In this document: positions 9,085 through 11,745 of the stretch, one piece after another
Layout: every line of letters begins with the position of its first letter
Numbering within the stretch: position 1 is the first letter of the stretch
Assembly: GCA_035765535.1 (NCBI GenBank)
Contig: DASTXE010000004.1
Coordinates: 189,137-253,136 of the forward strand
DNA from: Rickettsiales bacterium
GTDB lineage: Bacteria > Pseudomonadota > Alphaproteobacteria > Rickettsiales > JABCZZ01
DNA: 64,000 nt
Direction of reading: 5' to 3'
Translations under genes and position numbers: made by a program
The notes under the pieces: generated by a model
What the model was told of the DNA's origin: nothing
Databases searched by the model: none
Seen by the model: the letters and a program-made list of their open reading frames with translations, nothing else

Positions 9085-11745
9085 TTACTCATCACTCGCG
9101 CCTCGTGTCCGGTCAGCTGAGTCTAAATCAGGACTGCCCGGTTTTATGGATTTAGGTTCCACCGCCGCGCTGGGTGGTTTAGGAATTGTTAGCAGCAGGT
9201 GTTTATTGTCTCTGATTGTTTCAACAGCATCCACATGAATACAGAAAGTGCTGCCAAACGTTTTGCATTGATCGGTGCGCAGCCTGATGCCCGCTACTTC
9301 AAAATATTCATTATCTCCGGCAACCTCCCAAGCCGCCTGCACAGCCTTATAAAAACGGTCAATTACGGGATCACTTGATCCAATCGTTCTTCTCATCTCA
9401 TTTTTAATCAGCCAGTCTGATGTTCTTTTTTCTGGGGAAGGACTTTTGAACTTATCGGCAGCATCCTTATGGATACAGAACGAGATATTCTTACCATTAT
9501 TGGATTGAAACACCCCTGCCTGATCGGTGCGCAACCTGATTCCCATCGCTTCAAATTCATTATCTCCAGCTTCTTTAGCCGCTTTCCATGCCGTTTCCAT
9601 GGCGTCATAAACAGCAGCGACTATAGTATATTTTCCTTTGGTCGCCGCCCTCATTTCCGCTTTATTTAACCATTCATCCGTTTTTTCCGGAAAATTACTA
9701 CGGAACAAAGACGCAGCGTCCTGATGAACGCAGAAAGCAGGTACGGGACCTAATTTAAAAACCCCTGCCTGATTGGTGCGCAACCGAATCCCCTCCGCTT
9801 CGAAATACTCATTGTCTCCGGCTTTTTCCCATGCTTTCCGCAAGGCTGCATAAAGGCCGGAGATAGTCTCTGTAGCCCTGTTGCTGGCTGCAGCCATTTC
9901 TTTAATATTCAGCATTTTGGCGCTTTTGGGAGGGAAATTATGGGCGAATAAAGATGCTGCCTCTCCATCCACATAGAAAGTGCTTTCTCCGGTGGCGGAT
10001 CGGAAGAACCCCACCTGATTCGTGCGCAACGTAATTCCTCTCGCTTCAAAAGTTTCTGCATCACCCGCTTCTGCCCAAGCAGCCTCCAGAGCGTTATAAA
10101 GGCCCGAAATGGTGCTAACTTTTCTTCCGGTTGCGGCTGCCATATTCGTTCTATGCAACCATCCGGCGGGAGGATCCGGTAAAATTGCGCGCCGCCTGTT
10201 AGCGTCAGCAAGCACAGCTGACATTTCTTCATAACCAAGGTGCAGTGTCATACCTTGCGGAAGTTGGGGGCGCTCTACGGGTTCGCCGCCGCCTTCTGCT
10301 CTTGAAGCCTTCACCCTGTCTTTTCGGCTATGAAGCGAGGGACCTTCCAGTACCTGCGCATACAGATAGGGATTCGTGCCGGCCGCGCGCACATTTATCG
10401 CTAACCCCACCTTGCTTTGCAATGTTGACTGATTCCGAAGATATTTCTCAAAATAATCTTCTTTTTCCTTTCGCCCTACACGGCCTAACTGCTGTTCCGC
10501 GACATAGGGCACATTGAGCTGCATGGAATAACAAACCGTGGCATTGGGTGCATCAAATCCCATACCCAGCAGTTTATCATTCCAGATAGCCTGGATTTCA
10601 CCGTTCCTGAATCGCTTTAATATCTCATCGCGATCCGTAATGGTTATTTCACGTTTTTCAGCATTGTCGTAATAAGTGAACTCACTCTTTTCACCGCTTA
10701 CCCATGCTGCTTTTACATCCAGACCGAGCGCGCGTGCCTGGCGATTGAACTCTTTGGCTCCGTCTGCTGCCGCTTTAACACCCTGCGTATAGAATATGGT
10801 AGGCAGACGGCTGATTTTTCCTAATTCCTTATCCACATGGTTGAGGTGGAAATTGACAACCTTTTCTATGACTGCAGATGCGCTGGTAAACTTTTCAATA
10901 TCTTGCTGGGCATAATTTCTGCCTCTTGGGGTTCTATTGAAACTGGCGACCAGTTCTTGATCCGTCGCGATATCAATAACCCCTGTGCGTATGCCATCGC
11001 ATAATATACCACCGCGTCTGATTGCCCCCACAAGAGGCAGATTATATATTGGTTTTTGTCCATTGAAGAGGGTTTGTGAAGCCCCTGCATCGGTGGCAGT
11101 AAAACCTGCCATTATCACCTGATCTTGATAGGCATTAAGCTGCCCGCTCGTTTCCGGGCCTTGCGCTTCATGCACCTCATCCAGAATCCATAAGGGGCGG
11201 TAGTGAGGATCGCCGGGAGTTGCAAGACCAAGTTTACCGGCCAGTGAAGGTAGCCCCTGGTAGCTGGCAATCACAAATTTAGGAGGGTTCTCACTGTCTA
11301 ATATGCTGCGGATGGTATTGATACCCTGCTTGCTGTCGTAGATGGCAACGTCACTTTCGCTGATACCGACTTCCTGGCAAAGTTCATGCAGTGTCTGTGC
11401 GTTGAGTACGTTGCGCGGCGTGAGAATAAGGGCTGGCACGTCCATCGCTTTGGCCATAGTGCCAAACATGCGTGTTTTACCTGAACCGGTCGCGGAGACG
11501 ACCTCAAAGAAATCCCCTTCTTTGGTTCCCGTTACCGGAGGTTGTTCTGAGGCTCCTTCTTCCGGCGGCTCCCTGCCGCCCTGGATAAATTCCGCCCCGT
11601 CTTCTAATCGCAGGAAATCTTCAACCGATTGAAGTGCTTCAAACTGGTGGGGACGCAATGCTTTCTTATCGTCAGAAGTTCTGGACTCTTTGACAAGAAA
11701 ATTATGCAGATTGCCCAGTATCTTATCTTTATCCTGCTGGCGCAC
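9085..11745 (-). CDS. superfamily-2 (ResIII/DEAH-like) helicase with four C-terminal ~80-aa tandem repeats
   Basis: 886 aa with a GTG start. Helicase motifs are LRPHQFEAL, SATGSGKT (motif I), ILDEVHE (II), FTATD (III) and QQLGRVGRK (VI). Residues ~529-846 are four repeats of one unit. Confidence 0.8.
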   Translation of the reverse strand: MRQQDKDKILGNLHNFLVKESRTSDDKKALRPHQFEALQSVEDFLRLEDGAEFIQGGREPPEEGASEQPPVTGTKEGDFFEVVSATGSGKTRMFGTMAKAMDVPALILTPRNVLNAQTLHELCQEVGISESDVAIYDSKQGINTIRSILDSENPPKFVIASYQGLPSLAGKLGLATPGDPHYRPLWILDEVHEAQGPETSGQLNAYQDQVIMAGFTATDAGASQTLFNGQKPIYNLPLVGAIRRGGILCDGIRTGVIDIATDQELVASFNRTPRGRNYAQQDIEKFTSASAVIEKVVNFHLNHVDKELGKISRLPTIFYTQGVKAAADGAKEFNRQARALGLDVKAAWVSGEKSEFTYYDNAEKREITITDRDEILKRFRNGEIQAIWNDKLLGMGFDAPNATVCYSMQLNVPYVAEQQLGRVGRKEKEDYFEKYLRNQSTLQSKVGLAINVRAAGTNPYLYAQVLEGPSLHSRKDRVKASRAEGGGEPVERPQLPQGMTLHLGYEEMSAVLADANRRRAILPDPPAGWLHRTNMAAATGRKVSTISGLYNALEAAWAEAGDAETFEARGITLRTNQVGFFRSATGESTFYVDGEAASLFAHNFPPKSAKMLNIKEMAAASNRATETISGLYAALRKAWEKAGDNEYFEAEGIRLRTNQAGVFKLGPVPAFCVHQDAASLFRSNFPEKTDEWLNKAEMRAATKGKYTIVAAVYDAMETAWKAAKEAGDNEFEAMGIRLRTDQAGVFQSNNGKNISFCIHKDAADKFKSPSPEKRTSDWLIKNEMRRTIGSSDPVIDRFYKAVQAAWEVAGDNEYFEVAGIRLRTDQCKTFGSTFCIHVDAVETIRDNKHLLLTIPKPPSAAVEPKSIKPGSPDLDSADRTRGASDE
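9208..10161 (-). repeat. four in-frame tandem repeats of a ~80-aa unit at the helicase C-terminus
   Basis: Unit consensus read by eye: W-L-x-K-x-E-M-A-A-A ... Y-x-A-L-x-x-A-W-x-x-A-G-D-N-E-Y-F-E-A-x-G-I-R-L-R-T-[ND]-Q-A-G-V-F ... F-C-[VI]-H-x-D-A-A. Confidence 0.85.

Follow-up and report, generated by a model that had tools for sequence, protein, structure and literature searches.

A rare SF2 helicase with a tandem array of predicted winged-helix-like units, often encoded on mobile elements of uncultured bacteria

INTRODUCTION

What would a DNA helicase do with four copies of one domain strung out behind its motor? The question is raised by a gene in a 64,000-nucleotide stretch of DNA (the window, taken at its full length) from a Rickettsiales bacterium (assembly GCA_035765535.1, contig DASTXE010000004.1, positions 189,137 to 253,136 of the forward strand). 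Its product joins a superfamily 2 (SF2) helicase motor to an array of four tandem units of 81 to 86 amino acids, located C-terminal to the motor at residues 529 to 853. A sequence-only reading, made from the letters and a list of their open reading frames (ORFs), had described the units as an unrecognized domain, had compared their first half to the helix-turn-helix (HTH) of excisionase/MerR proteins and their second half to the core of BRO-N/KilA-N domains, and had regarded the architecture as undescribed. We have followed up these claims by profile searches, structure prediction, and a survey of relatives and their gene neighborhoods. The answer toward which we lean, tentatively and as something short of probable, is that the protein is a translocase on duplex DNA, carried by mobile elements and held on DNA by its array, which would be a covalent imitation of the head-to-tail filaments of Xis and BldC. 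The host is an alphaproteobacterium, since the window encodes TrcR/DUF1013.

RESULTS

Anatomy of the protein

The anatomy of the protein is established. The units were delimited by the recurring strings G-I-[RT]-L-R-T-[ND]-Q and W-L-x-x-x-[EN]-M; in a four-unit alignment they share 44 to 55% protein identity and 21 invariant columns, and their pairwise local alignment scores of 110 to 186 compare with a maximum of at most 49 in 300 shuffles (z 20 to 38). The presence of four diverged repeats at the C terminus of an SF2 helicase, as proposed from sequence, is thus borne out; the consensus given for the repeat agrees with our alignment, and the span assigned to the array (9208 to 10161) was correct except that it stops about 20 nt short of the end of unit 4. 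The duplications that generated the array are old, since the units are only 58 to 68% identical at the DNA level.

SF2 enzymes are built on two RecA-like lobes bearing motifs I (GxGKT), II (DExH), III (TAT/SAT), and VI (QxxGRxxR). The window protein, whose N terminus aligns with homologues starting at residue 1, belongs to this superfamily by its Pfam bit scores, by its motifs, and by the presence of both lobes in its model. Pfam returned ResIII at residues 28 to 218 (E 1.2e-12, 48 bits against a cut-off of 22.5) and Helicase_C at residues 367 to 426 (E 4.4e-6, 27.4 bits against a cut-off of 23.5), and motifs I (ATGSGKT, residue 85), Ia, II (DEVH, residue 189), III (TAT, residue 216), and VI (QQLGRVGR, residue 418) are intact, so that the motor looks active. 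Between motor and array lies a conserved connector with a helix at residues 505 to 519 of the full-length model; this helix precedes the array in all close homologues, with the family consensus ..VH.DY.DM..VLS.A...R.. in the alignments. Pfam and the locus surveys placed no nuclease, protease, NADase, or other effector domain in the helicase protein. Assignment to the PADLOC families PbeA and PsyrT was rejected; the match is restricted to the Helicase_C lobe, and there are no recurring partner genes.

The full-length AlphaFold model has a predicted local distance difference test score (pLDDT) of 82.1 and a predicted template modeling (TM) score (pTM) of 0.57. In Foldseek, this model came closest to XPB, both in TFIIH and as archaeal XPB-Bax1 (E 6e-15 to 1e-11); RadD, Hef, Mfd, SNF2-type ATPases, RecQ, and HsdR ranked next. 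Profile searches with the motor against PDB sequences pointed in the same direction ("putative helicase" 7clg, E 1.5e-10; XPB, E 6.6e-8), and the motor alone, searched as a single sequence against PDB sequences, gave no match. XPB/Rad25 proteins are distinguished by a RED motif, a thumb insertion, and a damage-recognition domain. Orthology with this family was rejected, the NCBIfam equivalog NF045503 scoring 21.8 bits against a cut-off of 610 and aligning residues 75 to 140 only. XPB/Rad25, RadD, and Hef resemble the window motor as two-lobed SF2 DNA translocases (Foldseek E 6e-15 to 4e-11), but identity is about 15%, the equivalog model fails, a Bax1-like partner is lacking, and the array behind the motor has no counterpart among them; the likeness in fold concerns the generic motor. 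By its predicted structure, the motor falls among the SF2 DNA motors of the translocase and repair kind; it is XPB/RadD/Hef-like and not an XPB orthologue.

Rarity of the family and exchange of its parts

For the window protein and for nine diverse relatives alike, Pfam, NCBIfam, PHROGs, and PADLOC matched the motor alone and have no model that covers the units; Pfam returned nothing for the unit region at an E value of ≤1 for the window protein and nothing at ≤0.1 for the nine relatives. The description of the domain as unrecognized holds against these four collections, and profile searches gave no well-characterized family. With no entry in Pfam, NCBIfam, or PHROGs, the unit would found a domain family of its own. 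A literature search turned up no account of a helicase joined to an array of such units, in keeping with the earlier view that the architecture had not been described; the architecture is new, and its kinds of component (an SF2 translocase and a winged HTH) are known.

The family is small and confined to uncultured bacteria, and its rarity is established. A four-unit profile detected 24 proteins at an E value of ≤0.001 among 1.84 billion representative proteins, and a whole-protein search of 5.8 billion clusters yielded 21 full-length homologues of 714 to 1,156 amino acids, with motor identities of 33 to 55%. A profile scan of 185,579 species genomes with the full-family alignment, in which matches to the generic P-loop pattern predominated, contained one true relative (from a Rickettsiales metagenome-assembled genome [MAG]) among the matches listed. 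A scan of metagenome contigs (Joint Genome Institute) with the family sub-alignment GFTATDAG added a single new locus, L022. When the repeat region alone (residues 520 to 862) was used in a word-indexed search, only the window's own protein was returned; the family was found through the motor, in the whole-protein search. The survey of homologues for repeat number that the sequence-only reading had proposed was made with an iterated profile over all proteins fetched, and it recovered 126 units, distributed over about 30 proteins with 1 to 9 units each. With few exceptions, the full-length carriers are SF2 helicases, and the short matches look like fragments from short contigs. The distribution of the family is extremely patchy, and its genomic location varies between genomes.

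By eye, the C-terminal arrays first seemed to be of three kinds; they resolve into two types. The first comprises the window kind (P0003 to P0006) and a look-alike (P0013 to P0020), which merged under the iterated profile; the second (P0007 to P0012 and P0021) is related to the first at the profile level only (hhalign probability 85%, E 6e-6, over the whole unit). Whole arrays have been exchanged between unit types within the family, and in P0041 a second-type unit sits between units of the first type. Units are also carried by SF2 motors that are 24 to 26% identical to the window motor or have no detectable similarity to it (P0025, P0028, P0029, P0033, P0034, and P0041). Since the repeat sits on such widely divergent motors, from 52% identity to undetectable similarity, the combination of motor and array is a recurrent one and not a single accident.

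At L022 (9011 to 12056), the member is split into two overlapping ORFs of 716 and 343 amino acids in different frames, with a tRNA-Lys gene 3.6 kb downstream. The L022 helicase is probably a frameshifted pseudogene or the product of an assembly error.

Predicted fold and conservation of the unit

Unit 2 was modeled on its own with AlphaFold2 from a 61-unit alignment (mean pLDDT 87.2, pTM 0.72), and in the full-length model the same fold is predicted for each of the four units. The predicted topology is a short strand (W-L), helix 1 (E-M-A…), a turn, an 18-residue helix 2 (…T-I-S-G-L-Y-A-A-L-R-K-A-W…), four strands (F-E-A, I-R-L-R, A-G-V-F, and A-F-C-V-H), and a last helix. Foldseek with this single unit, a check that the sequence-only reading had put forward, found weak winged-HTH neighbors and nothing significant. 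The top named matches were BldC, Pukovnik Xis, Tn916 Xis, RacA, DriD, and ArsR/MarR-type winged helices in the PDB and, in BFVD, phage proteins labeled "MerR-like HTH," "Excise," AlpA, PrtN, TorI, and Cox; the unit profile searched against PDB sequences gave weak GntR-type winged-HTH matches (E 0.004). In our reading, the unit belongs structurally with the winged-HTH-like domains of excisionase/MerR proteins but has grown larger and diverged past sequence recognition; this reading leans on the predicted model and leaves the fold class weakly established. The excisionase/MerR idea therefore survives in part: the weak fold neighbors are all of the Xis/MerR/BldC type, but the resemblance belongs to the whole unit, which is predicted to be a single winged-HTH-like domain, and not to its first half only, and the profile comparison was negative. 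The BRO-N/KilA-N comparison is not borne out, the second half being the beta-hairpin wing and C-terminal helix of the same predicted domain.

Two sets of families were rejected as homes for the unit. HTH_17, MerR, and Phage_AlpA gave no Pfam profile match, and hhalign was likewise negative; KilA-N and BRO-N gave no Pfam or PHROG match and were absent from the named top Foldseek matches, where the nearest approach was one "antirepressor-like" protein at rank 19 (probability 0.51).

The conserved columns of the unit are core hydrophobic positions (W1, L2, M7, A8, L21, Y22, L25, A28, W29, F40, I47, P48, G53, F63, L65, and F73), together with an acidic position 6, Cys64-x-His66 on the last strand, and the inter-unit linker K-T-[DE]-E-W. 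Variability is highest in the turn, at the beginning of helix 2 (its first turns), and in the hairpin loops, the positions at which Xis/MerR folds contact DNA.

No polar residue of the unit is conserved besides the Cys-x-His pair (F-C-[LVI]-H, profile columns 64 to 66, residues 672 to 674 in unit 2) and the acidic position 6. The second unit type retains the Cys (L-C-A-S-P) and not the His; packing and a metal or redox site are candidate roles for the pair.

Gene neighborhoods of the relatives

Linkage of the family to mobile elements is established by the survey of homologues' neighborhoods that had also been proposed, in which 5 of the 11 neighborhoods compared are clear mobile elements, 2 are suggestive, and 4 have no mobile-element gene within 10 kb. 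Among the clear cases, the gene for P0006 (locus L016) has a TraG/TrwB-type coupling protein gene as its divergent neighbor, with an HTH_17 gene, a resolvase, and an insertion sequence; that for P0013 (L017) has a TrwC relaxase gene as its divergent neighbor; and that for P0014 (L020) lies in an element that runs from AlpA, an integrase, and TrwC through the helicase to a ParB-like protein, a coupling protein, and an HTH_17 gene and ends at tRNA-Pro. L019 (P0012, a Rickettsiales MAG) presents tRNA-Ser, an integrase, and the helicase, followed by DpnII-type restriction-modification genes, a second integrase, and AlpA, and the P0041 gene keeps company with RepB, ParB/RepB, and a serine recombinase. 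L021 (P0007), with tRNA-Thr 200 nt upstream and an integrase 5 kb away, and the window, with a 59-nt direct repeat and tRNA-Tyr, are the suggestive cases. The genes around L001/L002, L003/L004, L018, and L022 look like housekeeping genes.

L016 also contains, at 1 to 1426 and 13909 to 18281, a 1,701-amino-acid SNF2-like protein (Pfam WH_1, DUF8437, and Helicase_dom) and two RHS/YD-repeat toxin-like genes; DUF1493 genes lie downstream of the latter.

Direct repeats and the tRNA-Tyr hot spot in the window

The two copies of the 59-nt direct repeat are 86% identical (flank alignment z 33) and bracket the helicase gene as a 2.8-kb cassette; their 31-nt core occurs at just these two sites in the window, with 0 expected by chance. 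They look like the attL and attR of a decayed integrative element. A direct repeat also brackets the P0014 gene (L020, 9678 to 9716 and 12776 to 12815; 39 nt, z 7.6), with a sequence unrelated to that of the window, and seven other homologous loci tested have no flanking direct repeats; since only L020 shows such bracketing beyond the window, it is no family rule. An accessory stretch opens at the 3' flank of tRNA-Tyr with a low-GC block and continues into the helicase cassette. GC content drops to 0.40 at 12001 to 14000, and the block holds, at 12008 to 13317 on the minus strand, a 210-amino-acid calcineurin-type metallophosphoesterase ORF followed by a 222-amino-acid ORF with no Pfam match, which together look like a split or decayed accessory gene. 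The ORF list contains no recombinase ORF between tRNA-Tyr and the helicase gene. We infer that the locus is a decayed, accreted island at a tRNA hot spot, the helicase being left as a 2.8-kb att-flanked remnant.

By eye, the end of the repeat, GGGGCAGAA(A)TACGC, about 16 to 25 nt, recurs in inverted orientation just 3' of tRNA-Tyr (approximately 13535 to 13556 versus 11864 to 11881), and the low-GC block at 11882 to 13550 is thus bounded by inverted copies of the repeat end.

A conserved C-terminal tail

Behind the array, most full-length members share a tail with the consensus [FW]-x-[ED]-x-[VI]-G…[KR]-S-I-x-P-x-S-x-x-[LI]-K-R-T-G-R-x-R, which is kept at the extreme C terminus across both unit types and across motor subfamilies. 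The window protein ends in K-S-I-K-P-G-S-P-D-L-D-S-A-D-R-T-R-G-A-S-D-E, with a net tail charge of about -1, whereas K-R-T-G-R-x-R closes the sequence of most members; tails are least basic in P0013 to P0016, the members beside coupling proteins. The full-length model predicts disorder in this part of the protein (pLDDT <50 from residue 858). A hidden Markov model (HMM) of the tail, run over 3,560 ORFs of the window and 22 loci, found it on the helicases alone, and the idea of a shared signal is without support because no non-helicase protein of these loci carries the tail. The likeliest role for the tail, predicted to be disordered, is that of a short docking motif to which a partner would bind.

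DISCUSSION

Xis, BldC, RdfS, and TraN-type proteins coat, bend, or mark DNA as head-to-tail oligomers in the service of mobile elements. Small MerR-like winged-HTH proteins of the BldC/Xis/RdfS type (PDB 6ama, 4j2n, and 1y6u), the best, weak Foldseek neighbors of the unit, match its predicted order of secondary structure, a helix-turn-helix followed by a beta-hairpin wing, but the unit has about 82 residues against their 55 to 70, its second helix has 18 residues, it has four strands and an extra C-terminal helix, and no sequence relationship is detectable (no Pfam match, hhalign probability of about 5%). They are free small proteins, whereas the window family strings 1 to 9 units together in one chain with a helicase. 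On direct repeats, BldC assembles into head-to-tail multimers (PMC5859096), and RdfS forms helical winged-HTH filaments that control the excision and transfer of an integrative and conjugative element (PMC11963761). TraN of pIP501, a 122-amino-acid conjugation protein, has an N-terminal domain like Tn916 Xis and a C-terminal half that aligns best with BldC, and it binds a specific site adjoining the origin of transfer (oriT) (PMC10877727). Appearing by its description to hold two Xis-like folds in one chain, TraN is the nearest precedent for covalent linkage on a mobile element, but this Firmicutes protein is a repressor with about two copies and lacks a motor domain.

Because conjugative or integrative elements often carry the genes of its few relatives, the window protein is probably a mobile-element DNA-handling enzyme. 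The DNA binding of the array, its target, and the step in the element's life cycle at which the enzyme acts are deduced from the features described above, and on this basis we suggest the following mechanism. An SF2 motor of the XPB/RadD/Hef structural type would track along or open duplex DNA, and the conserved connector would join it to four linked winged-helix-like modules. The array may be a pre-assembled head-to-tail filament gripping an extended DNA tract, at approximately one turn per unit, with the variable start of helix 2 and the hairpin loops setting its binding preference. In this position, the array would anchor or aim the ATP-driven motor, which might then translocate on, unwind, or remodel mobile-element DNA during transfer, excision, or establishment. 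The family would represent accessory cargo of integrative, conjugative, or mobilizable elements and plasmids of uncultured alphaproteobacteria, and the window copy a remnant of 2.8 kb between att-like repeats at the tRNA-Tyr hot spot.

Several results weigh against the anchored-translocase account. The unit has no Foldseek match at an E value of ≤0.001 (best E 0.97 in the PDB and 0.035 in BFVD), and its TM scores, although 0.5 to 0.65 by target length with BFVD probabilities of up to 0.98, are 0.37 to 0.50 by query length, which is below significance; compared by hhalign with the HTH_17/AlpA proteins of the same elements, the 61-unit profile reached a probability of 4.8%. Arrays are near neutral (pI 5.6 to 9.0), and the unit conservation alignment has no basic residue conserved across units; because the arrays are not basic, unspecific coating is a poorer fit to their charge than is recognition of sequence or shape, or binding to protein. 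The 4 of 11 neighborhoods that lack a mobile-element gene within 10 kb belong here, as does the absence of any constant partner gene across the neighborhoods surveyed. In addition, relaxases adjoining some members carry a helicase domain of their own, so that a role in strand transfer is not obviously needed.

The same near neutrality, the lack of a conserved basic patch, and the lack of a significant sequence relationship to DNA-binding HTH families would be expected if the units were protein-protein interaction or scaffold modules, their winged-helix-like fold having been turned to bringing partners such as the relaxosome, the coupling protein, or factors of the host to the motor, and the restriction of conserved polar residues to Cys-x-His and the acidic position 6 can be added in favor of such a role. 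We nevertheless hold it to be rather unlikely, since every named structural neighbor of the unit is DNA binding and almost all full-length carriers join the module to a DNA motor. Another alternative is export. BID domains with a basic tail, found in Bartonella Beps and alphaproteobacterial relaxases (PMC10025392), parallel the window family in having one or more copies of a domain of about 100 amino acids, followed by a conserved charged C-terminal tail, in alphaproteobacteria that have elements linked to type IV secretion systems (T4SSs), and array and tail could by analogy form a bipartite export signal. The helicase would then enter recipient bacteria together with the transferred DNA, to aid establishment or counter restriction, or would pass into a eukaryotic host cell as a nucleus-directed effector. 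The conservation of K-R-T-G-R-x-R at the C-terminal end across unit types and motor subfamilies speaks for this, as do the Arg-rich C-terminal signals and BID-plus-basic-tail arrangements known for VirB/D4-type systems (PMC10025392), the many plasmid-encoded proteins moved by conjugation systems (PMC11288057), the coupling protein or relaxase adjoining the gene in three loci, and a Rickettsiales-like host lineage (P0012 lies in a Rickettsiales MAG). The window tail (D-S-A-D-R-T-R-G-A-S-D-E) is not basic, however, the least basic tails are those of the members beside coupling proteins, and the tail occurs on nothing but helicases among the ORFs of the fetched loci; the unit is alpha/beta where BID is an all-helical bundle, and no T4SS channel genes were found in the loci. 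Export is unlikely, in our judgment, if still worth entertaining.

The exchange of arrays between unit types and the hypervariability of the putative contact positions would also suit a single-gene defense or anti-defense cargo, in which a diversifying array senses invader DNA or protein and the motor acts on invading nucleic acid or on host defense complexes. Such a cargo would be at home in accessory hot spots that hold DpnII-type restriction-modification genes (L019), a decayed metallophosphoesterase/STAND-like gene (the window), and RHS toxins (L016), and there are weak PADLOC matches to the PbeA and PsyrT helicases. These matches are limited to the Helicase_C lobe (residues ~350 to 428, best E 6.7e-6) and leave the array unmatched; moreover, effector domain and conserved partner gene are both lacking, and the family is far rarer than known defense systems, all of which makes a defense role rather improbable. 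That the protein is an ordinary chromosomal repair or recombination helicase, its repeats a lineage-specific decoration, is very improbable: the four housekeeping-looking neighborhoods and the repair enzymes among the motor's structural neighbors (XPB, RadD, Hef, and Mfd) are as this would predict, but a repair enzyme sits poorly with so patchy a spread (21 full-length homologues in 5.8 billion clusters, one metagenome locus, and, among the matches listed, one of 185,579 species genomes), with a location that differs between genomes, with direct repeats flanking the window gene, and with five contexts that are mobile elements.

If the array of the anchored translocase binds DNA as proposed, the protein would be the first case of the excisionase/BldC filament principle hard-wired in one chain together with an ATP-driven DNA motor, and a new accessory function would be added to the DNA-processing modules of conjugative and mobilizable elements in poorly known host-associated alphaproteobacteria. 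A conserved C-terminal peptide would be defined along with the new domain family. A bolder version, which we consider a long shot, is that the array is a modular, programmable DNA reader in which each unit reads about one helical turn through its hypervariable start of helix 2 and hairpin loops and 4 to 9 units spell a long composite site, bringing the XPB-like translocase to that site on the mobile element, with whole arrays being swapped between the two unit types to retarget the motor. Candidate targets would be the repeats flanking the gene itself or the oriT/att region, and the logic would be comparable to that of transcription activator-like effector (TALE) arrays. Units that are modular sequence readers would be of interest for DNA targeting; if they are not, the protein would represent a rare lineage-specific helicase variant.

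Further features of the window

The features discussed above are located in Table 1.

Table 1. Positions of the helicase-repeat gene, its parts, and the flanking features in the window
Feature	Position	Strand	Basis or remark
Helicase-repeat gene, complete	9085..11745	-	886 codons plus stop, GTG start (ORF list and translation)
SF2 motor, residues 1 to ~470: N-terminal helical extension and two RecA-like lobes	10336..11745	-	Pfam, motifs, model
Conserved connector, residues 471 to 528, ending in helix H-L-G-Y-E-E-M-S-A-V-L-A-D-A-N-R-R-R	10162..10335	-	Family alignments
Repeat unit 1, residues 529 to 610	9916..10161	-	HMM, E 5.8e-21
Repeat unit 2, residues 611 to 691 (unit modeled alone)	9673..9915	-	HMM, AlphaFold
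Repeat unit 3, residues 692 to 777	9415..9672	-	HMM, full-length model
Repeat unit 4, residues 778 to ~853	9187..9414	-	HMM, full-length model
Conserved tail motif, residues 865 to 882, K-S-I-K-P-G-S-P-D-L-D-S-A-D-R-T-R-G	9100..9153	-	Tail alignment
59-nt direct repeat, upstream copy	11823..11881	+	78 to 136 nt before helicase start codon
59-nt direct repeat, downstream copy	8980..9038	+	47 to 105 nt after helicase stop codon
tRNA-Tyr (GTA)	13571..13656	-	ARAGORN

A scan for promoter and terminator consensus sequences around the gene gave a number of sites no higher than in shuffled sequence. A hairpin at 9060 to 9080 on the minus strand (7-bp stem, GCATGCC-TAATTAT-GGCATGC), which has no T-run and is absent from the list of that terminator scan, begins 5 nt past the helicase stop codon. 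Elsewhere in the window, a 658-amino-acid ORF at 6018 to 7994, with no Pfam match at an E value of ≤0.001, contains repeated G-T-L-G-G…S-x-D-G-S-x-[IV]-V-G segments.

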